Notes under the pieces: generated by a model | What the model was told of the DNA's origin: nothing | Databases searched by the model: none | Seen by the model: only the letters and a program-made list of their open reading frames with translations | Program-made: the position numbers and the translations under genes | Source: a virus | Length of the DNA: 61,641 nt | Strand: one strand, 5' to 3' | IMG/VR virus record: IMGVR_UViG_3300045988_050566 | Part shown: piece after piece, positions 3,746-61,641 of the stretch | Layout: every line of letters begins with the position of its first letter | Numbering within the stretch: position 1 is the first letter of the stretch

Positions 3746-3760
3746 GTCCTCGTCCCTCTC

Positions 3761-4105
3761 TTAATCTGGCAAGGCGATATACACAACGATGGCTTTCGTC
3801 CACGGGAGGGAGTTGTAGACTTCTCTGCACTCCTCCTCTGTCTCCGGCAGCTTTTCAAACTCCTCGTCAGACAGGTGCCGCTCCAAAACGTCAAATATAT
3901 CGTCGTCGCTCTTGAACACCATCCACTCGCGGTTTTTGGTTAAGAGGTATTCATCTACCCTTGCGCTGCCCCATGCGCCAAGCCAATACCCGCTGTCGTC
4001 TCCGGGTATTTCTCCGTCTACCATCGGCACCACCGGCAGCTCCGGGTTTTCCTGCATGAGCCTAAAAAGTTCCTCGCGGTTTTCGCGCTCTTTGTCTGTA
4101 ATCAT
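3761..4105 (-). CDS. hypothetical acidic protein (114 aa)
   Basis: ORF track; compact operon position. Confidence 0.65.
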   Translation of the reverse strand: MITDKERENREELFRLMQENPELPVVPMVDGEIPGDDSGYWLGAWGSARVDEYLLTKNREWMVFKSDDDIFDVLERHLSDEEFEKLPETEEECREVYNSLPWTKAIVVYIALPD

Positions 4106-6556: not shown

Positions 6557-9500
6557 TTACTCGTAAATGACCTTGCTGCCCTCCGGCGTTTTCACCACGT
6601 CCACGCTCTGCGGGAATCTCGACTTCATGGCCGGGTCGTGGGTGATCGCCATTACCTTGAGGTCGCCGTACCGCTGCTGGATGGCCTCGAGCGCGTCGCA
6701 ATACGCCTGCACGCCGGGGGCATCGAGGAATGGGGGTTCGTCAATGAACAGGAATCCAAGCTGCACCCCCGCCTTGCTGCTCTTGATTTCCGAGAGCGCG
6801 AGGATAACCGAGAGGGCCGCCTTGACACGCTCACCGCCGCTCCTGCTCATGTATGGGAGCCGCCCGGTGTCGCTGTCGTTGATAATGATGTCGAGGGTCG
6901 TGACCTCTTTCTTGCTGTTGGATTTCAGCACCTTTTCCGTCACGAACTCCACGCTCATACGCCCCTGCGACATCTGGCCGAGGATATTGGTGGCCGTCGC
7001 CTCGAATACCGGGATAATGCTGCGGATGATGTTGTGGGGAATGCCGTCCTGCGAGAACGCCTTTTTCAGCTCCTCATACCCGGCGGCCTTGCCTCCCAGC
7101 TCGTTCATCTGCTCTTGCAGCTCCGCCGCCTGCTTGCGGGCGAGGCGAATCTGCCCGAGCTTTGCCTGCAATCCGCCGATGCGGAGGGAAAGCTCCTGCG
7201 CCTGCTTCTGAACGGCCTTGACCTCTGCCTCCGCCGCGTCCACCTGCGCCTGCAATTCCTCCCTGCCGACGGTCTTGCTCTGCTCGTCGGCCAGCTCTGC
7301 GCGGGCCTCCCGGATTTCTTCCCCGATTTCCGTCAGCTCCGAGCCAAGTTCCAAAATCCGCTGGGCCGCCGCCGCTTTCTGCTCCCGCGCCACGGGGAGC
7401 TGCTTCTCCTTGTCCAGCCAGCGACTCTCCGCCAAGAGCGTCCGCTGCAGCTCGTCGTAGTCCCGGCTGTAGGCTGCTGCCTGTTCGAGCTGCTGCTCGA
7501 CCGCTGCCAGCTCCGCCCGGCCTTTGGCTGCGGTGGCCTCCGCGTCCGCCACGGACTTCTCAAGCTCCGCCGCCCGTTCTTCCAGCACGGCCAGCTCGCT
7601 CCGCTGCGCCTCGAGGCTGTTGTAATCCCGTTCGGCGGCCTCGAGGAGCCGCAGAGAGGCCCGCAGCGCGTCGATTTCCTCCGGGACGTGTTTCTTATCG
7701 TCGAAAGCCTGTTGCGCCGCAGAGAGCGCGTCTGCGTTCGTCTGGCGTAGCTTCCCGTATTCCTCCTCGAGGGAGGCGAGCGCGGCCTCCTCTCCCGGCA
7801 GCGCATCTCTGGCCGCCAGTGCGTCCGCAAGGAACTTGCACGTGGCGTTGTCCGGGGCCGGACACCCGCTGTCTTTCAGCAGCTCCACCTTGCCCTTGAG
7901 CGAAGCAATTCGCCCCTCGAGGCGCGTCTTGGCCTCCCGGTAGTCGCGCTCTGTGCGCTCTGCCTCTGCCTGCCATGTCGTGAGGTTGTCCCTCGCCGCC
8001 GTGAACTCCGGCAAGAGCTTTTCCAGCTCTATGAGCTGCGCGGTGGCCGCCTCGTACTGCTGGTGCTTCTCGGTCAGCTCTGCGGCCCGCTCAATGGCCT
8101 GCGCCAGAGGCCCAATCTTCATCAGCGTGAGGGCCGCCTTTTTCTGGCGGTTGTCCTTTGCCGCGCTCTCTGCCAGTGTGATCGCGCTCTCAATCTGCTG
8201 TTTCCGGGTGGCGAGACTGTCGTAGGCTGCCTTGCCCTTAATCAGCTCTTTTTCCCGTTCCAACAGGGTCTTGTAATGCGCCACGCCTGCGTTAATCTCC
8301 GGCTCCGCTGCGAGGATGGTCTCTGCGGCGGTGATGGTCGCCACCTGCGCGGTCTTGGCGGCCTCCTTGGAGGCCTGCTGCGCCGTGAGGGTAGTAATCT
8401 TGCTGTTGAGCTTCATCACCCGCGCCGCCGCCTCGAGCTGCGTGTTGAGCTTGACCTTGAGGGTGTCCACCTCCGCCGTCTTGCTCTCCGCCTGTTCCAG
8501 CAGCCCCTTGCGCTGCGCCTCCGCCGCCTCGATTTCGGCGGCCAGCTCCTCGCTGTCCGGCAGTCCCGCCGTCAGGGTGTCCGCCTTGTCCGCCAGCGAG
8601 CGGATGGTGCGGTTGGTGTCGGTGGCCCGGTTCGCCGCCAGCTCCTCCATGCCCCCGTAGATTCCCAGCCCCAAAATGCTGCCGAGGATATTCATGCGGG
8701 CCTCTTTGTCTGCTTGCAAGAATAGGCCGTACTGGTCTTGCATGATAAGGGCGCAGGCTTTCAGCGTCAGGCTGTCCATGCCGATGATGTTGACGATTTC
8801 CTGCTGCGTGTCCTTGAACTTCTCCTTGCTGCGGTCTACCCATTCGCCCTCAACGCACTCCGCGATGTTCAGCGTCGCCTTGCCGCTTTTCTGCCGGGTG
8901 CGGGTGACGCGGTAGAGGCGGTCGCCCAGCTTGAACGTGAACTTGATGGCCCCGCTCCGGGCCTCCGGGTCGTTGCAAATCCAGCCCGTCAGCTCTCCCT
9001 CTCGCGGCTCCTCGTAGAGCGCGTCCAGCATCGCGTCCATGAATAGGCTGCTCTTGCCTACGCCGTTGCTGCCGTTGATGGTGCAGAAGCGAATACCGTC
9101 AAAGCTGAATTTCTCCTCGCGGTAGTTGCGGTAGTTCTTGACCTCAATCTCCATCGGGACGAACAACCCCGTGTGCCGCTCCTGCGTGGCCTTTTCCGTG
9201 GCCTCCGCAATCAGGGGCCGGGCCAGTTCGACCAGCTCGCCAATGCGCTCCGGCGTGAACTCCTTTTCGGCCAAGTAGTCCGCGAGATTGCTCTCCGGGG
9301 TGCCGTCTGCGTCCATGCTCCGGCGGTCTACCGTGATGGTGATTTTCTGCGGCGTAATCTCCTGTACCCAAAAGGCTCCGACGGCGTAGAGCATATTCTC
9401 GAATACGGCGTGGTTGAACGCCTTGTTATGCTCGTCGGTGCAGTCGTACAGGACGCGGACGATTTTCCCGTTGAGGTCGTCCGCCCGGTCGAGGAAGTCC

Positions 9501-10417
9501 GCGACCTCCAATTCGCCCGTCGTAATCCCGGCCACGTCCTCGTCGTTGAGCCGGAGGGTCTTGTGCTGCCGGGTGGGGAGCTGCTGGAATGTGGACTTGA
9601 CCTCGCCGCTTCCGTCGATGTCGTGAATCCAGTAGCCGCGCTCCTGCCCCTCGTCGTTGAAATTGAGCTGGGAGATGGCCCCGCAGTAGAACGTGTTCTT
9701 GCACCCCTCGAGCTGCTGCGGGCGGTGGATATGCCCGAAACACACGAGGTCGAAGTCTGCCGCCGCCAACGTGTCGGGATAAACGACAGGTTCAAACTGA
9801 CTGAAAAAAGCCGTCTGCCCGCTCTCCATGTTGCAGCCCGTGATGGTGTAGTGCGATACCAGCACCGCCGGGGTGCCCGACTTGCACTGTGCCTTGAGGC
9901 CAATAATCATGTCCGCGATGGCCTTGGTGAATACCTCGTTTTCCTCCTCCTTGGAGAGGCCGGGGTGCTGCGCCCGGTAATACCCCCGGTCGAATCCGGG
10001 GAGGCAAGCGACCTGCACCCAGCCGTATGCCCCGCTGAAAACTTCCACCACCTGCGGCTCCGTGATGATTTTCACCTCTCCGTCGCCCTCGAACGCGGTC
10101 TTGAGCATTTCAAACTGCTGCTCGCTGTCGTGGTTCGGCGTGCCCCGCATCACCACCACCGGGCAAATGGCCGAAAGCTCCCGCAGGAACTTCACCGCCG
10201 TCTGCTGCTCCTTGAGGCCCCGGTCGCTCCATACCCGCGCCTGATGGAAGATGTCGCCCGCGATTACCGCGATGCCCGGCTTTTGTTCTCTGGCCCCCTC
10301 CACCAGTGCGTCGAGGCACTTGCAGATGTCGAGGTATCTCGCGTTCTCCCCGTTCTTCTCCGGGCCGGGGAAATTTCCGATATGGAGGTCGCCCGTATGT
10401 AAAACTCTGATCGCCAT
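6557..10417 (-). CDS. fused SbcD(Mre11)-SbcC(Rad50) nuclease/ATPase, single 1286-aa polypeptide
   Basis: N-terminus LHTGDLHIG...IAGDIFH...GHIH (calcineurin-type phosphoesterase). Walker A INGSNGVGKSSL at about residue 455, then a long coiled coil. C-terminal signature SGGERVKAALSVILALSE and Walker B FLFIDEPPFLD. Confidence 0.9.
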   Translation of the reverse strand: MAIRVLHTGDLHIGNFPGPEKNGENARYLDICKCLDALVEGAREQKPGIAVIAGDIFHQARVWSDRGLKEQQTAVKFLRELSAICPVVVMRGTPNHDSEQQFEMLKTAFEGDGEVKIITEPQVVEVFSGAYGWVQVACLPGFDRGYYRAQHPGLSKEEENEVFTKAIADMIIGLKAQCKSGTPAVLVSHYTITGCNMESGQTAFFSQFEPVVYPDTLAAADFDLVCFGHIHRPQQLEGCKNTFYCGAISQLNFNDEGQERGYWIHDIDGSGEVKSTFQQLPTRQHKTLRLNDEDVAGITTGELEVADFLDRADDLNGKIVRVLYDCTDEHNKAFNHAVFENMLYAVGAFWVQEITPQKITITVDRRSMDADGTPESNLADYLAEKEFTPERIGELVELARPLIAEATEKATQERHTGLFVPMEIEVKNYRNYREEKFSFDGIRFCTINGSNGVGKSSLFMDAMLDALYEEPREGELTGWICNDPEARSGAIKFTFKLGDRLYRVTRTRQKSGKATLNIAECVEGEWVDRSKEKFKDTQQEIVNIIGMDSLTLKACALIMQDQYGLFLQADKEARMNILGSILGLGIYGGMEELAANRATDTNRTIRSLADKADTLTAGLPDSEELAAEIEAAEAQRKGLLEQAESKTAEVDTLKVKLNTQLEAAARVMKLNSKITTLTAQQASKEAAKTAQVATITAAETILAAEPEINAGVAHYKTLLEREKELIKGKAAYDSLATRKQQIESAITLAESAAKDNRQKKAALTLMKIGPLAQAIERAAELTEKHQQYEAATAQLIELEKLLPEFTAARDNLTTWQAEAERTERDYREAKTRLEGRIASLKGKVELLKDSGCPAPDNATCKFLADALAARDALPGEEAALASLEEEYGKLRQTNADALSAAQQAFDDKKHVPEEIDALRASLRLLEAAERDYNSLEAQRSELAVLEERAAELEKSVADAEATAAKGRAELAAVEQQLEQAAAYSRDYDELQRTLLAESRWLDKEKQLPVAREQKAAAAQRILELGSELTEIGEEIREARAELADEQSKTVGREELQAQVDAAEAEVKAVQKQAQELSLRIGGLQAKLGQIRLARKQAAELQEQMNELGGKAAGYEELKKAFSQDGIPHNIIRSIIPVFEATATNILGQMSQGRMSVEFVTEKVLKSNSKKEVTTLDIIINDSDTGRLPYMSRSGGERVKAALSVILALSEIKSSKAGVQLGFLFIDEPPFLDAPGVQAYCDALEAIQQRYGDLKVMAITHDPAMKSRFPQSVDVVKTPEGSKVIYE

Positions 10418-26392: not shown

Positions 26393-26815
26393 TTACCTCC
26401 TCTTGACTTTGATTTTCAATGCGTCTGCGAGCTTTTGCAGTTCCTCCGGCTCCGCCGCAAAGAAGTCCTCGTTGAACAGAATTACCTCCAAGTCCTGCCG
26501 CAGGAAGTGTCCCCAATCCCTTTCCAGCATCTCGATTTCCTCGTCGCTGAACCGCTGCCGCCGCCCCTCCGCGCTGTACCGCTCCCGGTTGCTGTAGGCG
26601 ATGGCGTAGGTCAGTGCGCCGCGCTCAAGCCCCCGCCCGTCGTCGTTCCGGGCAAAGTGCTTTTTCGCGTTCTCGCTGGTGCTGTAGCAGACCTCTCTCC
26701 CGTCCGGCAACACGAGCGAATACCCCTCCGTGTGCAGCTCCGTCCCATAAGGGATGTTCAGCCGCTCCCCGCACAGGGCCAGCTCCTTGTACCTGTGGTG
26801 CGTCACGTAATTCAT
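26393..26815 (-). CDS. hypothetical protein (140 aa) translationally coupled to the RT
   Basis: MNYVTHHRYKELALCGERLNIPYG; ATGA overlap with the RT stop. Confidence 0.6.
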   Translation of the reverse strand: MNYVTHHRYKELALCGERLNIPYGTELHTEGYSLVLPDGREVCYSTSENAKKHFARNDDGRGLERGALTYAIAYSNRERYSAEGRRQRFSDEEIEMLERDWGHFLRQDLEVILFNEDFFAAEPEELQKLADALKIKVKRR

Positions 26816-28068
26816 GCCGCTGCTTCCTCCTCTCTGACTGAGCCGTGCCGCCTGTAAATCCAGCCCGCCTCCGTCTTGGTCGCTTTCATGGTGCATTTGA
26901 ATTTCTTTTTCCGCGCCGACAGCTCCGCCTCGAACAGCCGCACGAACTTCTCGTCCATCGTCCGCAGCGTGTCATAACTGTTGCACCGCAGCGCGTGCGC
27001 CCTCCACGACTGGTAGGACTGAAAAATGTCCTCCGCCGCGAGCTTGCCCTTGTCCAGCCACTCCCGGAAAATTTTAATCTTCCTCCGCATGGCCCGGACG
27101 CTGCTCCTGCTCAACTTCATCGTCACCTTGCCTCCCTCCCGCAGCGTTATCCGCATCTTGAGGAATTTGAAGCTGTGGTGCCGAAACGGGGTTATCCTGC
27201 ATTTCTTCTCGCTGAGTGCAATCCCCATCTCCTCCGCCATCTTGTGCAAGCATCGGTCGATGTCCCGCAGCTCCTCGAGTGAGTTGCTGATTGCGTACCC
27301 GTCGTCCATGTACCTCCCGTACCCGTGTATGCCGCGCACGTCTTTCACGTAATGGTCTATCGGGCTTGCATAGTCCAGCGCGATAATCTGGCTTATCTCG
27401 CTCCCCAGCCCCACGCCGCGCTTGCGCTCCGCCGTCTTGTCCGCCGTTTTCATCCTCTGAAAATCGTCCACAAATTGGCAGAACAGGGCGTAGAGGCGGT
27501 CGTCCATGATTTTCGCCCTCGCTCTCCGCTTGATTTCGTCGTGGGGCAAGCTCGCAAAATACCCCTTGAAGTCGAATTGGTAAATCCCACCCTCTGTCCC
27601 GAACTTCCTGTAGTGGTCTTGAAGATGCTTCTTGAGCCGCTTTAGCTGGAAGTCCATACCCTTGTCCGCAAGGCTCGCGCCGTTGTCATAAATGAAGCTG
27701 CGCGAATATGCCCGCGTCAAAAGGTTACTGCATAGGCACTTCTGAATCGCCCTCTCCTGTATCGGGAGCGCGTCGATGTTCCGTTCTTTCCCGTGTTCAA
27801 TGGTCGTGAAGCTCTGAAAGCCCCGGAACTTCCTTGTGCCGTTCTGTAGTGTCTCATAGGTCTTGAGGCTTTCTGCCAGCAGGTTCGTCTCGAAGTTTAT
27901 CGTTGACGTTTTCCACCTCGCGCCGTTGCAGCAGGCCTTGCCCGCCTTGCAGAGGTTCCCGAACGACATCACCTCGTCGAAGCTCGCGCCTCCGGCCTCC
28001 TGCGCTTTCTGCTGCCTCCGCGCTTTCCGCCGTTGGTATCTCGCCTCGCGCCTTTCGCTGCTGTTCAC
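26812..28068 (-). CDS. DGR-type reverse transcriptase (418 aa from GTG 28068; start uncertain, alternatives ATG 27969 or 28179)
   Basis: Catalytic GYGRYMDDGYAIS (YMDD). GVGLGSEISQIIALDY matches the DGR-RT (I/L)G..xSQ motif. AGGAGG lies 10 nt before the GTG. Sits next to the TR and an Avd-like gene. Confidence 0.85.
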   Translation of the reverse strand: MNSSERREARYQRRKARRQQKAQEAGGASFDEVMSFGNLCKAGKACCNGARWKTSTINFETNLLAESLKTYETLQNGTRKFRGFQSFTTIEHGKERNIDALPIQERAIQKCLCSNLLTRAYSRSFIYDNGASLADKGMDFQLKRLKKHLQDHYRKFGTEGGIYQFDFKGYFASLPHDEIKRRARAKIMDDRLYALFCQFVDDFQRMKTADKTAERKRGVGLGSEISQIIALDYASPIDHYVKDVRGIHGYGRYMDDGYAISNSLEELRDIDRCLHKMAEEMGIALSEKKCRITPFRHHSFKFLKMRITLREGGKVTMKLSRSSVRAMRRKIKIFREWLDKGKLAAEDIFQSYQSWRAHALRCNSYDTLRTMDEKFVRLFEAELSARKKKFKCTMKATKTEAGWIYRRHGSVREEEAAA

Positions 28069-28392
28069 TTTTCTCTTGCCTCCTGTGCCGCCAAGATGCA
28101 GTATCCCACACGTACAGCGACATGGCTCTGCGGGTGGTTTGCAGGGTGCATCACTCCCCGCACCTCTCCCGCCAGCCATGACGGTTTTTTCGTAGCTGCG
28201 TAACGGCTGCTCATGTAACCGGGGCACTCCCGTCAAAATCCCCAGCCATGCAAGAAGCGTCCGGGCCTCCGTATCGTGTGGTAAGTTTAGGATTGAAGCC
28301 CCGTCTCCGGGGTCAGTCTCCAAGGGTCAAGTCCTCCTTTAAGTTTTGGGGCGCGGCTTCGCATTTCGCTACTTGTTCTGGCCCCAGTCTGT

Positions 28393-28526
28393 CCTTAAAT
28401 CCCGGCGCGAAGCCATTCGACCAGTTCGCGTTGTTGTTGTTCGCGCTGCCGTCCGTGTTCACATTGCAGAAGTTGTTCGAGTTCGTCGCATTGACGGAGC
28501 GGAGCCACCAATTGCAGGCGGCGCCG
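28393..28526 (-). repeat. DGR template repeat (TR)
   Basis: 134 bp aligning to VR1 (29116-29249) with 15 mismatches, and to VR2 (60662-60768) with 17 mismatches. All mismatches are at + strand T (coding-strand A). The sense translation is Asn-rich: WWLRSVNATNSNNFCNVNTDGSANNNNANWSNGFAPGFKD. Confidence 0.9.
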
Positions 28527-28547
28527 TCAGGACTTGCCCTACAAAAA

Positions 28548-29015
28548 TCACGCTTTCCCAGCCTCCTCCGCCTTGCGGCGGTAGCCGTTCCAACGCTTTT
28601 TGTCGCTCTCCAAGACCGCCCGGAGCCGGGAGAACGCGTTGTTTGCCAGCGTCGTCCACGCTTGGAACGCCTTTTCGTACTCTGCCTTTCCCGCAAAGAA
28701 GTTGTTCCCCGCGTCCACCATCTCATAGCAGAACGTAATCTCTCCGCAAATCGCGTCCGCGCTGCTGCACGCTATCATCAGGTAGCGGTGCCGCAGCTCG
28801 TAGTCGTGTTCGCTCATGTCCTTGTGCAGGTAGATCGCATTCCCCTTGAGGGCGTTGAGGTATATCTCCCTCGCCAGTTCCAGCAGCCCGTTCGTGATGT
28901 CGCGGTAGCTCTTGGGGAACTTCCGCGTCACCCGCACGGTGTACTTGCGCAGCTCCCTCGCGTCCGCGATGAACTGCGCCGCAGCGTCTTTCCTCCGGGA
29001 TTTGTAAACCGACAT
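28548..29015 (-). CDS. avd: Avd-like accessory variability determinant (155 aa)
   Basis: Small basic helical protein (RKFPKSYRDITNGLLELAREIYLNALKGN) between the target gene and the TR, the canonical DGR position. Confidence 0.75.
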   Translation of the reverse strand: MSVYKSRRKDAAAQFIADARELRKYTVRVTRKFPKSYRDITNGLLELAREIYLNALKGNAIYLHKDMSEHDYELRHRYLMIACSSADAICGEITFCYEMVDAGNNFFAGKAEYEKAFQAWTTLANNAFSRLRAVLESDKKRWNGYRRKAEEAGKA

Positions 29016-29059
29016 TTCTCACTCCCTCCTCTCGCTCTGTGCGTTCCTGTCGTTCCGCT

Positions 29060-29081
29060 GGCGGGGGCTTTCGCCCCCACC
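29060..29081 (-). promoter_or_regulatory. GC hairpin with GAAA loop 26 nt downstream of VR1 (DGR target-recognition-type stem-loop)
   Basis: Minus strand: GGTGGGGGC-GAAA-GCCCCCGCC (core 6-bp G/C stem). Confidence 0.65.
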
Positions 29082-29107
29082 GCTTCACTTGCCTCCCTGA
29101 TTTTGGA

Positions 29108-30697
29108 TTAGGCAACCTTAAAGCCCGGCGCGAAGCCAAGCGACCAGTACGCGATGGTGTTGCTCGCGCTGCCGACCGTGTCCACATAGCAGAAGTAGTA
29201 CGAGTTCGCCGCATAGACGGAGCGGAGCCACCAATAGCAGGCGGCGCCGGTCGCGTTGTGCTTGTACTTCACCTTGCTGTTGCCGTTCTTGTAGTAGTCA
29301 TACTGCTTCTGGTAGTTCTGCTCCGCGCTGTTCGCGTAGCTGCGCGAGCCGTGTACCTCGAACTCCGAAAGCAGCCAGATTTTGTCCTGCGTCGCCGTGA
29401 CGCAGCTGGCCGTGTTGCTGCCGCCGCCCCGGTTGTCGCTGTACTTGGTGCAGGCCACAATCACGTTCTGCCATTCCGCCGGGAGTGCCGAGAGGAACGC
29501 CGGGCAGATGGTCTGGCGCATATAGCTGCTCTCCCAGCCGCCGGAGTTGGTATTACTGGTGTTCATCACGAATCGGGCGTTCGCGTTGTTGCTGTAATAC
29601 TCGTTGTACCCTGCGTCCACAAAGGCGATGTCCTTGCTGCTCGCGTCCTTGCCGAACTGGAAGTGGATGCTGTTGCCGCCCTCCACGCTGCTGTTGTGGT
29701 TGAATCCGAGGATAAAGGCGTAGTAGGTGCCATTGATCGTCAGCGACCCCACCTTACCGTTTACTGCGATAGGCATCTTGTCGCCCGCGCTCCAAAGGTT
29801 CGCCGCCTGCCCGGACTGGGCGGCCTCCTTGATGGTGGCCGGGTCGTTGTCCTCGAGGGACGGGCTTGCCATCTTCACCGTCACGCTGACGGTCTTGTTG
29901 GCCGGGGCCGTGTGGTTGGTGCCCTCCGCGCACTTGACCGTAATGGTCGCCGTGCCGCTGCCCTTGGCCGTGATGGTGATGGTCGTCCCGCTCACACTCA
30001 CGGTCGCCACGTCCGTCTTGTTGGAGCTGGCCGAAATCACGCCGTCGCCGCTCCGGGTGGCCGTGACCGTCCCGGTGGCGGTGCCGCCGCTCAAGGTGAG
30101 GCTGCTCTTGTTCAGCGTCAGGCTGCCCGCCGCCTTGTTGATTTTCCACGTGATGCTCTTGGCCGTGGTGGTGCCGTCGCTCCACTGGTAGTTCTTGCCC
30201 GGCGTGAATGTGGCCGTGTAGCTGCCCGCATTGGTGCCCGAGTTGGTGCCCCCCAGCGTCATCTTCCCGCTGTCATAGTTGGCCCATGTGGGGGACTGCG
30301 CGCTGCCCGTGTAGGTCAGGCTGCCGCTCTGCGACGGGGTGGCGATGTTCGCCCTCCCAATCGTCCAGTTCACGGTCTTTGCCCCGGTGGTGTCGTCCTC
30401 CCACTTGTACCCCTCTTTCGGGGTGAATGTCACCTGATAGGTGCCCGCGTCGGTCGCGCTCTGCGTCCCGCCGATTTCCAGCGCGTTCGGGTCGTAGTTG
30501 TTCCAGCTCGGGGACTGCGCCTGCCCGTTATAGGTCAGCACGCCGCCCTGCGAGGGAACTGCGCTGATTTTGGTCGTCATTTCCGTAATGGCCTTCTGCG
30601 CTGCCTCTGCGGTCTCTTTGGCCGCCTGCGCAATCTTCCTCACGGCTTCCAGCTCCGCCCCGGTAACGCCCGGGACGTTTACTGCTCCATACGCCAT
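29108..30697 (-). CDS. tail-fibre / receptor-binding protein, DGR target 1 (529 aa)
   Basis: Repeated Ig-like segments (GTYQVTFTPKEGYKW, GSYTATFTPGKNYQW, Big_2-like VATVSVSGTTITITAKGSGTATITV). C-terminus CYWWLRSVYAANSYYFCYVDTVGSASNTIAYWSLGFAPGFKVA contains VR1. Confidence 0.85.
   Translation of the reverse strand: MAYGAVNVPGVTGAELEAVRKIAQAAKETAEAAQKAITEMTTKISAVPSQGGVLTYNGQAQSPSWNNYDPNALEIGGTQSATDAGTYQVTFTPKEGYKWEDDTTGAKTVNWTIGRANIATPSQSGSLTYTGSAQSPTWANYDSGKMTLGGTNSGTNAGSYTATFTPGKNYQWSDGTTTAKSITWKINKAAGSLTLNKSSLTLSGGTATGTVTATRSGDGVISASSNKTDVATVSVSGTTITITAKGSGTATITVKCAEGTNHTAPANKTVSVTVKMASPSLEDNDPATIKEAAQSGQAANLWSAGDKMPIAVNGKVGSLTINGTYYAFILGFNHNSSVEGGNSIHFQFGKDASSKDIAFVDAGYNEYYSNNANARFVMNTSNTNSGGWESSYMRQTICPAFLSALPAEWQNVIVACTKYSDNRGGGSNTASCVTATQDKIWLLSEFEVHGSRSYANSAEQNYQKQYDYYKNGNSKVKYKHNATGAACYWWLRSVYAANSYYFCYVDTVGSASNTIAYWSLGFAPGFKVA
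29116..29249 (-). repeat. DGR variable repeat 1 (VR1), last ~44 codons of the tail-fibre gene
   Basis: See the TR entry. The differences from the TR are only at TR adenines (coding strand). Confidence 0.9.
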
Positions 30698-37107: not shown

Positions 37108-37767
37108 TCAAGGTAGTGTTAAAACCTGTCCGGGGTAAATCAGGTTCGGGTTGCCCCCGATTGTCCCCTTGTTCGCGTTGTAGATTTTCGTGTAGTCCGA
37201 GCCGCTGCCGTAGAACTGCTTTGCAATGTTCCACAGGCAGTCGCCGCTTTTGACGGTGTAGGTTTTCGGCTGCACGCTGTTGTCCACCCGCGCCTCCTCT
37301 TTCTCCACGGTGGCCTCCTTGCTGGGAATGTCCACCTTGACCTGCCGGACGGTAATCTCCCGGTACTCTTTCAGTGTGATGTCGTACTGGTACGTGCCGG
37401 GGTCTCCGCCCTCCTCGCTGTAGTTGAATTTCTCAATCGCACAGTAGAGGTCTACCCCACAGGCCGTCGCAATGAAGTGTACGGGCTTCTTGCTCGCTTT
37501 CCACGTGTTGATTTTCTGCACCAGTTCCAGCGGCTTTGTGATGCTGCTGACCTGCAATCCGGGGAAGCGCGCCGCCGGGAAAAAGCTCGAAAAGCTAAAT
37601 TGCAGGGCCGGGCGGCTCTGCATGATGATGATTTCGCCCAGCCCTGTAATGTCCATGCTGTCGTTGCTGCTCCCGTTGTTGGTCTTGAACGTCTCCGGGA
37701 GGACGGGGAGCTGTATTTTCTCTTTCTCTGCGTTGTACGTCAGCCACATTTGGTACTTAATACTCAT
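37108..37767 (-). CDS. XkdP-like tail protein with C-terminal LysM (219 aa)
   Basis: YTVKSGDCLWNIAKQFYGSGSDYTKIYNANKGTIGGNPNLIYPGQVLTLP. Confidence 0.75.
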   Translation of the reverse strand: MSIKYQMWLTYNAEKEKIQLPVLPETFKTNNGSSNDSMDITGLGEIIIMQSRPALQFSFSSFFPAARFPGLQVSSITKPLELVQKINTWKASKKPVHFIATACGVDLYCAIEKFNYSEEGGDPGTYQYDITLKEYREITVRQVKVDIPSKEATVEKEEARVDNSVQPKTYTVKSGDCLWNIAKQFYGSGSDYTKIYNANKGTIGGNPNLIYPGQVLTLP

Positions 37768-40700
37768 ACGACATATCCCCCTCCTCGTAGATTTCGCTCT
37801 GGATAATGCTCATTAGGATAGGCTTGAGGTTTTCCCACATGATTTGCAGCACCGTCTCCCGGTCGGCTCCGTTGCCGCTCACCTCAATCGCGCCGCTGCC
37901 TGCGATTTCCAGCAGTATGCGCTTCACCTGCTCCTGTGCTGTCTCCCTGCCGCTCGAGGTCTCGCTGCCTCCGCCACTGGTGAATACCTGTAGCGGCTGC
38001 CGCTTCTCGTTCAGCGCGGCAATCAGCCTGTCGGTCTCCTGTGTCGGGAACACGGTGCTGCCCTGCTCTCCGACGATAAGCTCCGGCCCGTTCTCTCCGG
38101 CGATAAAGTAGTCCGTGCTGTCGGTCGTGCCGCTGGCGTAGGCCGCCGCTGGCCGGGCGACAAGCTCCGGCCCCTGCTCGCCCGCGAGGAAAACGCTCTC
38201 CGCGTTCGTGGTGCCCTTTGCGTGGCCCGCGACGCTGCCGCTGGAAGTCACGTTCACATGGATGGTGGCGTTGGCCGAGGACAGGGCAGACGTGACCGCG
38301 CTGGCAACCTCCCGCGCCGCCGACACCGCGCCGTTCTTTCCAGCCCGGATTTGGTTCGCGTAGGAGTTGATGGTCGAGCTGGCTGCTGCGCTGGCCTCCT
38401 CGCTCAAGTCCATGCCATTGATGGTGTCCTGCATCTCCTGCTCAATGGCGTTCATCTGCGCCGTGAAATCCGTCTGCCAGTCCGCCACGGCTGCCGCTGC
38501 GGTCTCCTTTGCGGCCTGCACCTGCCCGACAGTCTCGGCAAGGGCCGCCACCGCCTCGGTGTTGCCGCTGTTGATGGCCTCCGCCATGCTCGCGGCAAGC
38601 CCTGCGGCCTCCTCGCTGCCGGACTGTGCGTAGGCCATCAAAGCCTCGTAGTTCTCTTGGGTAACGCCCAAGTCCTCCGCCGAGGTGTTTTTCAGCGTCT
38701 CGACGTTGGCACTGTAGCTCTCCCAATAGGCGAGCTGGCTGTCGAGGGCGGCCTGCGCGTTCGCCACGGTCGCGTCCATGTCGGCCTCTGCCTCGTCGAA
38801 TAGCCCGAACTGGCCCTCGAAGCTCTCAAGGGCCGCTTGGTACGCCTCGTCGTAGGCCGCGCACAGCTCCTCTACCTTGGCCCGGACGTTCTCGTAGGCG
38901 ATAGAGACCGCTTCCTCGTAGGAGGACGGGCTTTCCGCCGCTTCCTCCGCCGCCTCTGCGACCCCGGCCCAGTCGTCCTCAATCCCCTGTAGGGCCGCTT
39001 GGTTCTCGGCGTAGGCTGCGTTCAGCTCGTCCAGCGCGGCTTGGTAAGCCTCAAGGTCGTCCCATTCGCCGCCCGTCCAAAAGTGATCCCAGCCGCTCAT
39101 GTTGTCCATGCGCTCTTGTTCGAGCCGCACGTTCTCCTCGGCCTTGGCAATCTCCTCCTCGAGGTTTGCCTGCTCCTTTAGGAGGTCAACATACGCCTGC
39201 TTCTGCTCTGCCTGCCGCTCCTGCTCCGCTTGAGCCTCCGCTGCCTGCTTCATGGCCTCGATGCTCTTTTCGGTGCTGCTCGCCACGTCGTCGTAGGAGA
39301 GTGCCAGCTCGGGCAGGTCTGTGTTAAGCTGGTCTATGACAGCTTTCATCTGCTCCTCTTGAGCTGCCGTCCTGTTGGTGGTAGAGGCCAAGTCCTCGAG
39401 CTTCTGAATGAGGGAAAGTGTGCCGACCTCGTTCTGGTCGATGGTCGCCATACCCTCCTCGTAGCTGGAAATCAGCTCGTCATGGCTCTGCACCAGTGCG
39501 TCCACCTCTGCGGTGAACTCCTCCACCGTCTGCTTGTTCGCCTCGTAGGAGGCCGTCAGGTCGTCCACCTGATACTTGAGCCGCAGGGCCTCCTCCGAGG
39601 TCTCCCCGTACTTCTCGCAGGCCTCCTCGTATTCCGCGTTGAGGTCTTGCAGCTCGTAATACTGCTCGCGGGTGGTCGCCGTCAGGCCCTCCACCTCGCC
39701 CAAGTCCTCTTGGAAAGCGTCAACGAGGAACAGGGCCGCCGCCGTGACCGCTGCGATGGCTGCCGCAATCGCGGTGATAGGCCAAATGGCCGCCGATAGC
39801 GTCGTCCCGAATAGCGCGGTCGCCGCCGTCGCTACCGCCGTTCCTGCGGCGTACAGCGCGAATCCGGCCACCACCACGCCGAGGCCCACGCCAATGGCGG
39901 TAATGGCCTTTGTGACGGCGGGGTGTTCCTGTAGGAACTCGCCCACGCCCTGCACGAAGCCCGCGAGGGCCGACGAGCCAGCCGACACCGCCGGGGTGAT
40001 CGCGGCCCCGAACGCCGCCTTGATGGAGTTGCCTGCGGCCTGCCATTCGTCCCCCATCGACTGCGCGCCCTCCGCGAGGGTTCCAACCGCGTCGTACATA
40101 TCCAGCGTTCCGCCCTCGATGCCCGAAAGCACCGGGAGGACGGTCGCCTCCAAGTCCTCGTACTGGGTGCCGAACAGCCCCACCGCCGCCGCGTTCTTTG
40201 CCATCGGGTCGTCCATGCTTTCCAGCGCGTTCACGACCTCGAAAAACGCTGTGCGGGCTGTGTCGCCGCCTGCGGCGAACTTCTCCGACATCACATCGGC
40301 GTTCATCCCCAGCAGCTCAAATGCCTCTGCCGTGGTGTCGCTGCCGTCCTTGGCCCGGATATTGAACTCCTTGACCGCGTCGCCAACCTTGTCCACGCTG
40401 AACACGCCCGCCTCTGCGCCGTCCACGAGGCTCGAGACGAACTCCTCCGCCGACAGGCCAAGGGCGGAATACTGCGCCGAATACTCATTCAGCACGTCCA
40501 GCAGGTCGCCGTTCTTGTCCGCGCCGTTCTGCGCGCCAATGGCAATCAGGTTGTAGGCCTCCTGCGCCGACACGCCGAAGTTTTTCATCAGCGCGCCCGC
40601 CGTCCGCGAGCTTTCCGATACCTCGTACCCGAGGACGTTGTTCAGCACGAGGGCCGCGTCCGTGGCCTCCTCGAGCGCGTCCCCGGTCAGCCCGGTCGCC

Positions 40701-41716
40701 GTCTTTACGTTCATCATGCCTGCGGCTACCTCGTTCAGGTTCTCCGCGCTGGAAGATGCGTAAACATCAAGGGAGTTGGACATCAGCTCGTCCAGCTCCC
40801 TACCCGTTGCGCCCGTCGCGCCTACTATCGTCTTTTCCGCTTCGGAGAAGCTGCCCGCCAGCTCATAGACCGCCCCGGCGATCTCCATAACCTTTGCGGT
40901 AATGCCCGCCGCCGCGAGTGCGCCCGCGACCGCGCCTATCGCGTCGGTGCCCTTGTTCCCGGCTCCCTCGGCTTCCTCTGCGGCCTGTTCCGAGGCGTTG
41001 GAAAGTTCCTCCGTCGCCTCGCTCGCCCTGCCGTTGGCCTCTGCAAGGTTCTCCGCCGCGTGCCCGGCTCGCTCTGCTGCCGCCTCAAGCTGGTTGAGGT
41101 CGCTCGTCCCGGAGGCCATCGTCTGGTTGTAGGCCTCCAAAGCCTCGTCCGCCTCCTGCTGGGCCTTTTCCAGCTCCCGCATGGCCTCCGCTGCCTCTGT
41201 GCTTGCCTTGGCGAGGGCCTGCTTGGTCTCTGCCGAAACGTCCTCATTATCCGCGAGCCTGTCGGCGGTCTGCGCCGCCTCGTCCATCGCCGCGCTCAAG
41301 TCCTGCTGGATTTGAGCCGTCGCGTCCATGCTCCGGCCCAGCTCGCTTGCCGACTGCTCGCAAAGTTCCAGCATTCGGTTCTGTTCCTCAAGGGCATCGG
41401 CCGATTTCAGCCCCATCTCCACCAGTTCCTCGGTGGAGTACGTGGCCTCAAGCAGCTCCCTGCTGTAGTTCCCTACCGCGTCCGTCCAGTAGTCGGCCTG
41501 CCCCATCGCGGCTTGCAGGTTGTCAATGGAGGTGGCAATGCCGTCCACGGAAGATACCGCTGTCGAAACACCTCCCGCAATCCCCTCAAGGGCGGCATTG
41601 GCTGCGTCCCCGGCGCGCTCCCATTGCTCCGTCATGCTCTGGCCCTTTTCGGCCATGCTGCCGAGCTTGTCGCTCATTTCATCCACGAGCTTAAATCTCG
41701 CCAGTAAATCAGCCAT
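37757..41716 (-). CDS. tail tape-measure protein (1319 aa)
   Basis: Very long Ala/Glu-rich helical protein with a central hydrophobic block (ITAIGVGLGVVVAGFALYAAGTAVATAATALFG), located upstream (5', minus-strand transcription order) of the baseplate genes. Confidence 0.9.
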   Translation of the reverse strand: MADLLARFKLVDEMSDKLGSMAEKGQSMTEQWERAGDAANAALEGIAGGVSTAVSSVDGIATSIDNLQAAMGQADYWTDAVGNYSRELLEATYSTEELVEMGLKSADALEEQNRMLELCEQSASELGRSMDATAQIQQDLSAAMDEAAQTADRLADNEDVSAETKQALAKASTEAAEAMRELEKAQQEADEALEAYNQTMASGTSDLNQLEAAAERAGHAAENLAEANGRASEATEELSNASEQAAEEAEGAGNKGTDAIGAVAGALAAAGITAKVMEIAGAVYELAGSFSEAEKTIVGATGATGRELDELMSNSLDVYASSSAENLNEVAAGMMNVKTATGLTGDALEEATDAALVLNNVLGYEVSESSRTAGALMKNFGVSAQEAYNLIAIGAQNGADKNGDLLDVLNEYSAQYSALGLSAEEFVSSLVDGAEAGVFSVDKVGDAVKEFNIRAKDGSDTTAEAFELLGMNADVMSEKFAAGGDTARTAFFEVVNALESMDDPMAKNAAAVGLFGTQYEDLEATVLPVLSGIEGGTLDMYDAVGTLAEGAQSMGDEWQAAGNSIKAAFGAAITPAVSAGSSALAGFVQGVGEFLQEHPAVTKAITAIGVGLGVVVAGFALYAAGTAVATAATALFGTTLSAAIWPITAIAAAIAAVTAAALFLVDAFQEDLGEVEGLTATTREQYYELQDLNAEYEEACEKYGETSEEALRLKYQVDDLTASYEANKQTVEEFTAEVDALVQSHDELISSYEEGMATIDQNEVGTLSLIQKLEDLASTTNRTAAQEEQMKAVIDQLNTDLPELALSYDDVASSTEKSIEAMKQAAEAQAEQERQAEQKQAYVDLLKEQANLEEEIAKAEENVRLEQERMDNMSGWDHFWTGGEWDDLEAYQAALDELNAAYAENQAALQGIEDDWAGVAEAAEEAAESPSSYEEAVSIAYENVRAKVEELCAAYDEAYQAALESFEGQFGLFDEAEADMDATVANAQAALDSQLAYWESYSANVETLKNTSAEDLGVTQENYEALMAYAQSGSEEAAGLAASMAEAINSGNTEAVAALAETVGQVQAAKETAAAAVADWQTDFTAQMNAIEQEMQDTINGMDLSEEASAAASSTINSYANQIRAGKNGAVSAAREVASAVTSALSSANATIHVNVTSSGSVAGHAKGTTNAESVFLAGEQGPELVARPAAAYASGTTDSTDYFIAGENGPELIVGEQGSTVFPTQETDRLIAALNEKRQPLQVFTSGGGSETSSGRETAQEQVKRILLEIAGSGAIEVSGNGADRETVLQIMWENLKPILMSIIQSEIYEEGDMSYEY

Positions 41717-56236: not shown

Positions 56237-57256
56237 TTACTCGTCGAGGCCGAACATTCTGCGGTAGTAGTCTGTCTTGCTCGACAACTCCTCCTGCATC
56301 AAGCCGTAGAAGCTCTGCTTGTTGATTTTCTTGTTGATGCCCGCCACCTGATTTAGGCTTTGGAAGCACCCGCCCGTGCCTATCTGCTTCATCAGCTCCG
56401 TAGGCTCCGGGTTCTTTCCGTTCAGCAGCATACACAGGTTGTAGTCGTTCCCTTTGAAGCCCTCAAGCCCGTCGATGCCGCAGCACGTCATGCTGTCTCC
56501 CATCGCCCGCAGGCGGTTCTCCCCGGCGTAGAATTTGAGGCCGTGGCGGTGGCACTCCGCCCTGATTGCCTCGAAGTGCGGCCGCAGCACGTTCAGCGGG
56601 TAGCAATGGTCGCCCCCGATTTTCACCATGCCCTTTTTGGCCTTGTAGAACTTCATGCCCTCCACCACTACGCCGTAAACGCCTGCGGCGGCCAGCCGGG
56701 GGATATTCGCCATCACGTCCCTAAAGACCTCCGGCATATACGGCTGTACGCGGACAATTACCCGCTGCACTCTGCCCGCGAGCTTTTCCACGATTTTCAG
56801 CCGCTCCTCGTAGGGCGGTGTCCCCGGTTCGAGCGGGTCGTACTTGCTGCACACCATGCTCACCTGCACGACGCAGTTGCATTGCGCCAGCAGGTCGAGG
56901 TATTCCGGGTCTGCCACGAGCCGTCCCTTGGTGCTTACCACGAACGGGTACTTGGTCTCCGCCAGCAGCTTCAAGCACTCGTAGGAGGCGCGGATATTCT
57001 TCTCGATGGGCTGGAATGGGTCGCTCATGCCGCCCCAGTGGATGGGGATATTCCAGTCGCACCACGCCGTCTCGCGGCCCCGCTTTCCCTCGATGAACGA
57101 GCGCAGGGCCTCCACGGTCTCGTCCCTCTGTATCTTTGCGATGTTCTGCTTCTTTTGGGCGAAGCAGTATTTGCACCCGTGGCTGCACCCCTTGTAGGTG
57201 TCGAAGCGCACGGGGAGGTTGCATAGGATAACCTGTGTCCCGCATTTGCAGCCCAT
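56237..57256 (-). CDS. radical SAM protein (SPL/COG1533-like, about 339 aa)
   Basis: CSHGCKYCFA = CxxxCxxC cluster near the N-terminus. TGATG coupling to the upstream ParB-like gene. Confidence 0.8.
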   Translation of the reverse strand: MGCKCGTQVILCNLPVRFDTYKGCSHGCKYCFAQKKQNIAKIQRDETVEALRSFIEGKRGRETAWCDWNIPIHWGGMSDPFQPIEKNIRASYECLKLLAETKYPFVVSTKGRLVADPEYLDLLAQCNCVVQVSMVCSKYDPLEPGTPPYEERLKIVEKLAGRVQRVIVRVQPYMPEVFRDVMANIPRLAAAGVYGVVVEGMKFYKAKKGMVKIGGDHCYPLNVLRPHFEAIRAECHRHGLKFYAGENRLRAMGDSMTCCGIDGLEGFKGNDYNLCMLLNGKNPEPTELMKQIGTGGCFQSLNQVAGINKKINKQSFYGLMQEELSSKTDYYRRMFGLDE

Positions 57257-57825
57257 CAAATCTCCCCCTTTGCTTTCTGTATGATTACCTCCACAAGAGC
57301 CTCTTTCCCGTAGTCCTTGACAAAGGCTTTCAGCTCCTCTTGGTCTGCCTTGTCGAATGTCAGGCTCACGTTGAACAGCTCCTCGATGGCCCGCAGCTCC
57401 TCGTCCACGGTGTCGCCGTCAATCAGGCTGTCGATGTCGTTGGTGAGGCTGTCGATTTCCTGCTGGTTGAAGCCCGTGAGCGTCGCGTCGTCCCCCAGCT
57501 CCGCCAGCAGCGCGCCCAGTTTCTCCTCGTCCCATCCGCCCTCGATTTTGTTGAGGGCCACGTTGAGCTGCCGCTCCTGCATCGGGTCGAGGTCTACCAC
57601 CGACACGTCCACCTCGGTCTCGCCCTCGTTTTCGAGGACGGTGAGCCTCTGGTGGCCGCCCACCACGTTATTCGTCCGCTTATTCCATATCACCGGGATA
57701 AGCAGCCCGTAGGTGGTAATGCTGCGCCGGAGGTTTTCGTACTCCGGGTCTCCGGGGATAAGGTCTATCCGGGGGTTGTACGTCGCCCAGTTGAGGTCGC
57801 TGATTCTCTTTCGCTCTATCTGCAT
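57256..57825 (-). CDS. ParB-like nuclease domain protein (IbrB-like), copy 2 (189 aa)
   Basis: ATYNPRIDLIPGDPEYENLRRSITTYGLLIPVIWNKRTNNVVGGHQRL. Confidence 0.8.
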   Translation of the reverse strand: MQIERKRISDLNWATYNPRIDLIPGDPEYENLRRSITTYGLLIPVIWNKRTNNVVGGHQRLTVLENEGETEVDVSVVDLDPMQERQLNVALNKIEGGWDEEKLGALLAELGDDATLTGFNQQEIDSLTNDIDSLIDGDTVDEELRAIEELFNVSLTFDKADQEELKAFVKDYGKEALVEVIIQKAKGEI

Positions 57826-58415
57826 TACAGCACCCCCTTGACCTTGTTTATGATCGCCGTCGCCAGCTCCACCTTGGCGTTCTCCTTGGTTTTCATGTAC
57901 TCCTCCACCGTCTCCCGCGCTCCCGCCGGGAGGCTGAACGTCATGGTAAAAGTGCTGCGCTCTTTCGCGTCGTCGTAGCCGGAGAAGTCCTCCTCCATCA
58001 GGTCTTTGATGTGGTCGTACTGCATGAGGAGGCTTTGCAGCTCCCAGTCCTCGAAGCCCGTCAAATCCATCGCCCCAGCCTCGTCCAGCTCTTGGAGCAG
58101 GTCGGCCAGCTTGCCGATGTCCCAGCGGCCCTTTACCTTGTTTAGCAGGACGTTGAGGATTTTCTCGTCCCTCTCGTCGAGGTCAACGACGACCGCCTCT
58201 ATCTCCTCCGCGCCCTTTTCCAGCAGTACCTTGAGGCGTTGGTGGCCGCCGACGACGCGCCCGGTGCGCTCGTTCCAAATAATCGGCTCCACATAGCCGA
58301 ACTCCTCTATACTCCGGCGCAGCTTTTGGTACTCTGCGTCCTCCGGCTGCAAATCCCGCCGGGGGTTGTAGTCGGCGGGCTTGAGCTGCGTCGCTTTCAG
58401 CGTCCGTATTTCCAC
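57825..58415 (-). CDS. ParB-like nuclease domain protein (IbrB-like), copy 1 (196 aa, GTG start)
   Basis: ADYNPRRDLQPEDAEYQKLRRSIEEFGYVEPIIWNERTGRVVGGHQRL. GAAAGGAGAGG before the GTG at 58415. Confidence 0.8.
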   Translation of the reverse strand: MEIRTLKATQLKPADYNPRRDLQPEDAEYQKLRRSIEEFGYVEPIIWNERTGRVVGGHQRLKVLLEKGAEEIEAVVVDLDERDEKILNVLLNKVKGRWDIGKLADLLQELDEAGAMDLTGFEDWELQSLLMQYDHIKDLMEEDFSGYDDAKERSTFTMTFSLPAGARETVEEYMKTKENAKVELATAIINKVKGVL

Positions 58416-58457
58416 GTTCCCTCTCCTTTCTGCCCCTTTTCGGGCCGGAAATTCCCT

Positions 58458-58499
58458 AAAAAAATACGCCACCCGTTGGAAATCCCAAACAGGCGGCGT
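58458..58499 (-). terminator. rho-independent terminator after the ArpU-like gene
   Basis: Minus strand: ACGCCGCC...GGTGGCGT stem followed by ATTTTTTT. Confidence 0.6.
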
Positions 58500-60259: not shown

Positions 60260-60593
60260 GGTCGGTTTCCTCCCCTTTCTTTGGCTCAAACTGCAAGCAG
60301 GCCTTTGTCCTGCGCGTCTTGTACTTGCGCCCCGGCCTGTTTCGGATTGGCAAGGGGCAGAAGCCCCCGTTTTTCGTCGCAGCGTCCCGCTCCCATTTGG
60401 CGCAGTTGCCGCACACCTTTCCGACGATCTCAATCCGCTTTTCCTCTTTCTCGACCGCCCGTAGGATTTTGACCGCCTCCCGCAGGGCCTCCGCATCGTG
60501 CTTAAAAATGCTGTCCGGGTCGTCCGGCGGTATCAGGCTCTCCCGGTCGTCGATTTGGTCGAGTAAGCTGCTGATGATTTCCTCGATTTTCAT
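60252..60593 (-). CDS. hypothetical Cys-containing protein (113 aa)
   Basis: ORF track; CGNCAKW ... FCPLP motifs; RBS AGAGGAGG. Confidence 0.6.
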   Translation of the reverse strand: MKIEEIISSLLDQIDDRESLIPPDDPDSIFKHDAEALREAVKILRAVEKEEKRIEIVGKVCGNCAKWERDAATKNGGFCPLPIRNRPGRKYKTRRTKACLQFEPKKGEETDHE

Positions 60594-60608
60594 GGCCGCG
60601 CCTCCTCT

Positions 60609-60634
60609 CTCCCCGGAGCTTTCGCTCCGGGGAG
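60609..60634 (-). promoter_or_regulatory. perfect 11-bp GC-rich hairpin with GAAA loop, 18 nt downstream of VR2
   Basis: Minus strand: CTCCCCGGAGC-GAAA-GCTCCGGGGAG. Confidence 0.7.
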
Positions 60635-60652
60635 GTTTTCTGTGATGTTGGA

Positions 60653-61533: not shown

Positions 61534-61641
61534 CTAAAAAAGACTTTTTTGTAAATCCCCGTCCAGCATATTCCATCTGAATTTCGTGTCTCCGGGGGTT
61601 AAGAAATGGTCGTCCTCCAACTGGAAACGCCTGTCGTAGTC
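61534..61641 (-). pseudogene. 3' end of the PAPS-reductase-like gene (continuation of 1..989 across the junction; stop TAG 61534-61536)
   Basis: Own translation across the junction: ...FLTPGDTKFRWNMLDGDLQKSLF-TAG. The stop abuts the RBS of the next gene. Confidence 0.8.
61543..61641. repeat. second copy of the 99-bp terminal overlap (identical to 1..99)
   Basis: Direct string comparison. Confidence 0.95.

Follow-up and report, generated by a model that had tools for sequence, protein, structure and literature searches.

The prototype of the diversity-generating retroelements (DGRs), with which phages alter the tips of their binding proteins by error-prone reverse transcription, is the one carried by Bordetella phage BPP-1, in which the target gene mtd, the accessory gene avd, a template repeat (TR) and the reverse transcriptase (RT) gene brt follow one another on one strand. 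A two-target form is found in the Faecalibacterium prophages Lelie and CP11, where one TR is accompanied by two variable repeats (VRs), located in a large and a small target, with the VR at the C-terminal end of the DUF6273 domain (PMC11792537). The virus record IMGVR_UViG_3300045988_050566 from IMG/VR, a stretch of 61,641 nucleotides that is referred to here, at its full length, as the window, almost certainly holds a complete phage DGR that combines one template with two targets.

The likeness to BPP-1 extends to most parts of the locus. [quoted passage not shown] The BPP-1 enzyme, Brt, aligns over its full length with the window RT, the IGSLTSQ motif of Brt matches LGSEISQ, and YMDD is present in both proteins. 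The differences are that the variable domain in the window is DUF6273, without detectable sequence similarity to Mtd; that the Avd-like protein shows no detectable sequence similarity to BPP-1 Avd; that the spacer belongs to the Rfam family RT-2, whereas that of BPP-1 is RT-10; and that the window combines a single-base difference between IMH and its TR counterpart (IMH*) with a second, remote VR.

With Lelie and CP11, the window shares a single TR that serves two VRs, one in a large and one in a small protein with DUF6273, as well as the setting, a temperate gut phage of the Oscillospiraceae type. The phage is neither of the two: the Lelie RT is only 29.6% identical to the window RT, the Lelie genome is 53.4 kb long compared with 61.5 kb, and tblastn with P0122, an intact homologue of the small target, finds nothing in Lelie. 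CP11 is smaller still (~36 kb). A further difference is the frameshift in the small target of the window. The Roseburia phage Shimadzu and the Faecalibacterium phages Taranis, Roos and Pioen have RTs that are among the nearest in named phages (37–38% identity). The last three carry a DUF6273 target whose gene is ~65–67% identical, at the DNA level, to part of the large target of the window. Sequence identity is low, however, and the last three phages have one VR. Among GenBank phage records, only Dulem virus 34 (PP511788), from the lemur gut, has a small-target homologue (45% identity over 71%); it also encodes a related RT (34%) and an immunoglobulin-like (Ig-like) region related to the large target, these genes being annotated as hypothetical. 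Two-target DUF6273 DGRs are already published, and the system in the window is ordinary for gut phages while being distinct in sequence from those of Lelie and CP11.

The adenine-specific pattern of divergence between the repeats is the core of the evidence. A direct-repeat search of the window returns one 134-nt pair with 89% identity, consisting of the TR (28393–28526) and VR1 (29116–29249), both on the minus strand. The TR contains 33 adenines and is rich in AAC and AAT. The gapless alignment of the two repeats on the coding (minus) strand contains 15 mismatches, each of them at an adenine of the TR (A>T in 9 cases, A>G in 3 and A>C in 3); for 15 mismatches placed at random, the probability of hitting TR adenines every time is (33/134)^15 = 7.4e-10. 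The TR is non-coding and is sandwiched between the stop codon of the avd-like gene and the RT gene; when read in the frame of the target, it contains NATNSNNFCNVNTDGSANNNNANWSNGFAPGF. VR1 represents the final 45 codons of a 529-aa open reading frame (ORF) and ends 8 nt before the stop codon. The TR offers ~17 variable codons, or roughly 5e17 possible peptides, a figure obtained by extending the computed count by hand with one added AAT codon. The first-pass annotation, made from the DNA letters and translations, had described a collinear, gapless pair with 15 differences at coding-strand adenines, an Asn-rich sense translation of the TR and an arrangement in which the target is followed by the Avd-like gene, the TR and the RT. 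Formal alignment, in which 0 of the 15 mismatches lies at a non-adenine TR position, the translation and the ORFs all bear out that description. The extent given there was too narrow: the elements that it named stand, but its coordinates omit the spacer RNA along with the hairpins of the VRs and the whole second target at 60502–61521.

The second target is located ~32 kb from the TR. Its VR, VR2 (60660–60768, minus strand), matches TR positions 20–132 and ends 7 nt before an in-frame stop at 60653. All 18 substitutions between VR2 and the TR fall on adenines; in addition, there is one 4-nt gap next to the (AAC)4 tract, a deletion of CGCG between 60707 and 60706. A third VR was not found in the window, either with the 14-mer described below (allowing ≤1 mismatch) or with a degenerate TR pattern.

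The same pattern recurs in related loci. The comparison set consists of 25 IMG/VR loci with RTs that are 63–99% identical and of 8 loci that encode the small target. In the ~20 loci that contain both repeats, the mismatches between VR1 and its own TR are confined almost completely to adenines (for example, 19/19, 12/12, 15/15, 20/20, 21/21 and 18/18), and the non-adenine exceptions lie mostly at the 5′ edge of the repeat. Four contigs span both loci; on these, VR2 follows its own contig's TR in the non-adenine substitutions, and therefore, one template renews both targets. Four genomes with the same TR (0–1 difference) differ at 16–23 positions of VR1, nearly all of these being adenine sites, compared with 3–14 differences in the 300-nt flanks. 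Likewise, VR1 of the window differs from VR1 of 97%-identical relatives at 20–21 positions, 17–19 of which are adenine sites, against 3–13 differences per 300 nt of flank. The turnover is therefore recent. One pair of near-twins shows a change on the template side: the TR of L007 (5419–5552) differs from that of L008 (5419–5552) only at adenines, with 15 adenines lost, and VR1 is identical in the two. The pattern resembles mutagenic homing with the template as recipient, an event that would disable the element of L007.

The RT gene (26812–28068, minus strand) encodes 418 aa when read from GTG 28068. The protein matches Pfam RVT_1 (2.2e-12) and the reverse transcriptase family phrog_1423 (2.5e-76), and it contains the stretch VGLGSEISQ along with YMDD. 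The (I/V/L)GxxxSQ motif characterises the DGR RTs (PMC3521204), and the window protein has it in motif 4, as LGSEISQ, together with a YxDD catalytic motif. The alignment with BPP-1 Brt (328 aa) spans essentially the full length of the protein at 25% identity (E=3e-19). The sole PDB sequence match of the RT is 8ub7_A, a reverse transcriptase of 328 aa; a literature search for the code 8UB7 gave no paper, so this structure was identified indirectly, through the RT alignment with Brt and the same 328-aa length. The closest RTs of GenBank phages are 41% identical to the window RT, and at the protein level, the RTs of the DGR-carrying phages Shimadzu, Taranis, Roos, Pioen and Lelie are among the nearest phage relatives. 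The call of a DGR-type RT in the first-pass annotation is upheld by the motif, by YMDD and by the full-length Brt alignment, there being no match to retron or group II intron RTs at curated thresholds.

The start of the RT gene calls for a correction. The annotated start, TTG 28323, up to which the frame is open, probably lies too far upstream; the structured Rfam RT-2 RNA (28142–28386) fills this stretch. GTG 28068 is preceded by AGGAGG, the protein-level alignment of the relatives begins at this residue, and, judging from the sequence, GTG 28068 probably fits better than TTG 28323. A third candidate, ATG 28179, falls within the RT-2 RNA and lacks conservation in the relatives, and it was dismissed on these grounds.

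The accessory gene (28548–29015, minus strand) encodes 155 aa. The AlphaFold2 model has a mean predicted local distance difference test (pLDDT) score of 90.7 and consists of four long helices. The top PDB matches of this model in Foldseek are 2gsc (prob 1.00, TMt 0.80–0.83, E 5e-3) and 2rld, which are taken here to be members of the 23S-rRNA-IVP/S23 family, presumably the family that contains Avd. At the sequence level, there is a weak match to phrog_3206, ‘Avd protein of DGR’ (E=5e-4), and 11 of the 34 homologues match PF22296 (bAvd) weakly (0.003 or weaker). A PDB sequence search with the Avd-like profile returned nothing meaningful. A homologue occupies the same position even beside RTs that are only 36–42% identical to that of the window (L041, L043, L048 and L049). 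With moderate confidence, the 155-aa protein is predicted to be an Avd-like four-helix bundle.

Each of the repeats carries, at its 3′ end, the same GC-rich 14-mer, GGCTTCGCGCCGGG, which occurs exactly three times in the window: at 28401–28414 in the TR, at 29124–29137 in VR1 and at 60666–60679 in VR2. By chance, ~0.11 matches are expected, and 0 of 100 shuffles reached three. The TR ends with an IMH*-like element (28393–28414, minus strand) of the form GGCTTCGCGCCGGG-A-TTTAAGG, and VR1 with the corresponding IMH, GGCTTCGCGCCGGG-C-TTTAAGG (29116–29137). The 14-mer is followed by A in the TR of the window and in every related TR but that of L003, and by C in every VR1 and VR2, which amounts to a fixed difference between GGGA in the TR and GGGC in the VRs. 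The adenines 3′ of the 14-mer are fixed among the VRs of one class; given that they never vary, the transfer of information ends in or before the 14-mer, as it does in the IMH/IMH* scheme. The suggestion in the first-pass annotation that this 14-mer resembles an IMH-type element is borne out by its presence in the TR and both VRs and by its behaviour as an IMH/IMH* pair with fixed A versus C. The sole TR in the set with the VR-type C beside the 14-mer is that of L003 (3455–3588), which ends in GGGCTTTAAGG; this TR might be a homing recipient.

Downstream of the VRs, there are GC-rich hairpins or cruciforms, both on the minus strand. The one after VR1 (29060–29081) has the form GGTGGGGGC GAAA GCCCCCGCC, with a 9-bp stem that starts 34 nt after VR1; the one after VR2 (60609–60634) is CTCCCCGGAGC GAAA GCTCCGGGGAG, with an 11-bp stem that starts 25 nt after VR2. 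The 66-nt stretches that include these hairpins fold, as DNA, with –16.6 kcal/mol (z = –3.4) for VR1 and –15.1 kcal/mol (z = –4.35) for VR2, in the latter case with 0 of 200 shuffles as stable. In the region after the TR, nothing equivalent to the VR hairpins was found (z = –0.67). Among the relatives, the VR1 hairpin keeps its position and GAAA loop and shows compensatory changes in the stem, and the VR2 hairpin is conserved in 8/8 VR2 loci. The hairpin that BPP-1 requires has a GC stem of 7–10 bp and a GRNA loop and lies 4–34 bp from the VR, and the VR hairpins of the window fit this hairpin/cruciform criterion (PMC3240598). The two target stop codons lie within a common motif, CTAATCCAAnATCA, which is located between the VR and the hairpin (29098–29111 and 60643–60656, minus strand); this motif is absent after the TR and is conserved with small variations in most relatives.

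The space that separates the TR from the RT gene is taken up by a structured RNA of the Rfam family RT-2 (RF03077; 28142–28386, minus strand, 245 nt), which begins 7 nt after the TR. The cmscan score is 76.2 bits versus a gathering score of 40 (E=1e-17), with the match covering model positions 1–222 of 222, and in an 11-sequence alignment, compensatory changes are seen at 15 of the 59 predicted pairs. This RNA is presumed to be the priming and RT–Avd-binding part of the DGR RNA. In the work that described these motifs, only RT-10 was tied to a DGR, the other RT motifs were speculated to serve other DGRs, and the role of most of them was left open (Weinberg et al. 2017, PMC5737381). An additional long-range duplex brackets the TR: the spacer arm AGGACTTG (28328–28335, minus strand) pairs with the upstream arm CAAGTCCT (28529–28536, minus strand), which lies just downstream of the stop codon of the avd-like gene. 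Among 23 loci, 9 distinct variants of the duplex occur; each retains all 8 bp, and double (compensatory) changes are seen at 4 columns. The spacer arm falls in a stretch that is drawn as ‘unpaired’ in RT-2, and its partner here is located upstream of the TR. Handa et al. describe a distal pairing in DGR RNAs that joins the upstream and downstream sides of the TR, and the TR-bracketing duplex resembles it (bioRxiv 10.1101/2023.10.23.563531).

The large target gene (29108–30697, minus strand) encodes 529 aa, with a coiled N-terminus, Ig-like repeats and a C-terminal DUF6273 domain that ends in VR1. The DUF6273 match (Pfam, 3.3e-18) covers residues 374–523 and is accompanied by weaker matches to He_PIG and MpPF1; the protein as a whole belongs to phrog_37900 (1.8e-195). 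The gene directly follows the tail-fibre-like genes, at the end of the tail-fibre module. Of the description as a tail-fibre gene in the first-pass annotation, the 529-aa ORF with VR1 at its C-terminus holds; the label ‘tail fibre’ is positional, aided by the Ig-like and DUF6273 domains, and is unproven. The product is probably a receptor-binding or adhesion protein, with a putative location in the virion and putative ligands. Within the gene, there is a 66-nt direct repeat (30272–30337 and 30491–30556, 73% identity) with a spacing of 219 nt, which is consistent with tandem Ig-like modules of 73 residues. The DUF6273 domain has been likened to the C-type lectin domain (PMC10743442). PDB sequence searches with the large target and with the small-target profile found no meaningful relatives, and a comparison of the small-target profile with BPP-1 Mtd (hhalign) was not significant.

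The small target gene (60502–61521, minus strand) is frameshifted and contains an open frame of 339 aa, with DUF6273 at residues 145–275 (Pfam, 1.2e-12). In the relatives, the intact protein has 278–291 aa, and its equivalent in the window would stop at 60653. A PAPS-reductase-like gene precedes it, a RecU-type resolvase gene and that of a late regulator follow, and the structural genes are far away; its product has no membrane or structural family matches. The upstream neighbour, a PAPS-reductase-like gene of 329 aa (phrog_424), spans the junction of the circular genome described below. The indels of VR2 cluster: the 4-nt deletion in the window (60698–60711) lies beside the same (AAC)4 tract as a +3-nt change, one extra AAC-derived codon, that is seen in the VR2 of L027 and of L029 (both 3754–3867), the former measured against its own TR and the latter, whose own TR is not on the contig, against the TR of a relative. 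The location among early DNA-metabolism genes and the lack of membrane or structural matches are the reasons to consider that the DGR might diversify a non-structural binder. An explicit version of this idea, that the second target is not a virion protein, that the DGR diversifies an intracellular or non-structural binder, such as a counter-defence or exclusion factor, and that the VR2 indels are RT slippage which switches the protein off or resizes its loop, is speculative and unlikely to be correct.

The analysis shows the parts of the element, the restriction of mismatches to adenines, the structures at the RNA and DNA level and the turnover of the VRs across loci; the biochemistry of the cycle can be proposed by analogy with BPP-1. 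A transcript that runs from the 3′ end of the avd-like gene through the TR and across the RT-2 spacer would fold such that the duplex 28529–28536/28328–28335 brackets the TR, and would wrap around the RT–Avd complex. Complementary DNA (cDNA) synthesis would be primed in cis, with the RT, together with the Avd-like protein, copying the TR and misincorporating opposite the adenines. The cDNA would then take the place of the homologous VR in the 3′-terminal part of a target gene, the target sites presumably being marked by the IMH, that is, the 14-mer followed by C rather than the A of the TR, and by the downstream GC hairpin with its GAAA loop.

Several observations weigh against the interpretation of the locus as a complete and working DGR. 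Across the 22 nt that are common to the 3′ ends of the TR and VR1, IMH and IMH* differ by one nucleotide, a smaller difference than in BPP-1, and because there is only this one difference, the role of the IMH in enforcing direction stays putative. The Avd assignment is below curated thresholds: Pfam and NCBIfam give no match for the 155-aa window protein, and the comparison of the Avd-like profile with BPP-1 Avd (hhalign) is not significant. VR2 is out of frame in the window: owing to the deletion, translation would run on as far as 60502, and the protein lacks the conserved C-terminus GFAPGFDI. The AlphaFold2 model of P0122, built from a 27-sequence alignment, is poor (pLDDT 47), with Foldseek matches that amount to noise; this outcome has technical reasons, and the C-type-lectin fold is a putative one. 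Finally, the activity of the DGR in the present-day population is itself inferred. The reading that would do away with a DGR altogether, namely, that the repeats are the ends of ordinary paralogous, duplicated domains and that the RT belongs to an unrelated retron, group II intron or defence system, nevertheless has a negligible probability. The matches of the RT to the NCBIfam models for group II intron RT, Drt3a and retron RT that could be cited for it are to be expected for any RT and are far below the curated cut-offs (67 vs 300 bits, 39 vs 200 and 22 vs 235, respectively). The Rfam scan of 27800–29300 contains no group II intron or retron RNA, and the TR is non-coding, lies between the avd-like and RT genes and is bracketed by a covarying RNA duplex. 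The adenine-only mismatches in three repeats and ~20 loci are counted as already refuting this reading.

The frameshift in VR2 is at the centre of the two other alternatives. The DGR could have been silenced recently; the lineage would then retain parts that all look intact but would no longer diversify, and the frameshift in VR2 would signal decay. This is improbable: the 4-nt deletion has indeed not been repaired by later homing, the same allele is present in two assemblies, and the two-VR Faecalibacterium prophages Lelie and CP11 showed no read-level variation when sequenced (PMC11792537), but the RT, the Avd-like gene, the TR (with 33 adenines and the A of IMH* kept), the spacer RNA, the large target and both hairpins are intact, and the turnover of VR1 relative to the 97%-identical relatives is recent. 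It is slightly less improbable, while still unlikely, that the deletion is an artefact, introduced when a hypervariable region was assembled or its consensus was built, with the small target being intact in the real population. Hypervariable repeats are hard to assemble, and the frameshifted extension is found in 0 of the 8 related loci, all of which end in GFAPGFDI, and in 0 of the 120 database homologues listed. Against an artefact stands a second contig, from another assembly (ERZ28662140, with a different naming scheme; 61,605 bp), which encodes the identical 339-aa frameshifted product and is 100% identical to the window across 3,140 nt around VR2, although the two assemblies possibly come from the same or related samples, so that their independence is unproven. 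On balance, the evidence leans towards the frameshifted VR2 being a real allele of a complete, two-target DGR.

The first 99 bases of the window are identical to the last 99 (1–99 and 61543–61641, exact match), which implies a circular genome of 61,542 bp. The PHROG matches of the window genes are those of a temperate tailed phage and include a serine integrase on the plus strand, an SbcCD-like nuclease, DnaD/DnaC-like loaders, methyltransferases, the small and large terminase subunits, the portal, tail-fibre-like proteins and an endolysin; a 1319-aa ORF (37757–41716) occupies the position of the tape-measure gene. Metagenome-assembled genomes (MAGs) of Oscillibacter and Oscillospiraceae hold relatives of the RT with 74–80% identity, and the host of this 61.5-kb temperate gut phage is probably a member of the Oscillospiraceae. 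Upstream of the terminase genes, there are two adjacent paralogous genes (57256–57825 and 57825–58472, minus strand) that are ParB-like or resemble a methyltransferase N-terminus, and a 1286-aa ORF (6557–10417) matches both SbcD-like and SbcC-like families. Next to the RT gene, an ORF of 140 aa (phrog_29409; 26393–26815, minus strand) has its start in an ATGA that overlaps the RT stop codon. This ORF directly follows the RT gene in every relative with an RT identity of at least 63%, and none was detected in the fetched flanks of RTs that are 36–43% identical (tblastn, E≤1e-3).

The general picture of DGR biology is unchanged by this locus, which adds a cleanly dissected DGR with two targets, all of its cis elements being mapped, from an uncultured gut phage that probably infects Oscillospiraceae. 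It is possible to interpret the Rfam family RT-2 as the spacer RNA of a DGR, the ‘AAAGGAG...’ stretch of which pairs across the TR, and in this DGR lineage, donor and recipient are told apart by a single base adjacent to the core of the IMH. The frameshift in VR2 and the +3 variants that stay in frame are a hint that retrohoming occasionally produces indels. The residual interest of the system resides in the frameshifted second target, in the location of this target in the early region of the genome and in the assignment of RT-2, along with the TR-bracketing duplex, to a DGR lineage.

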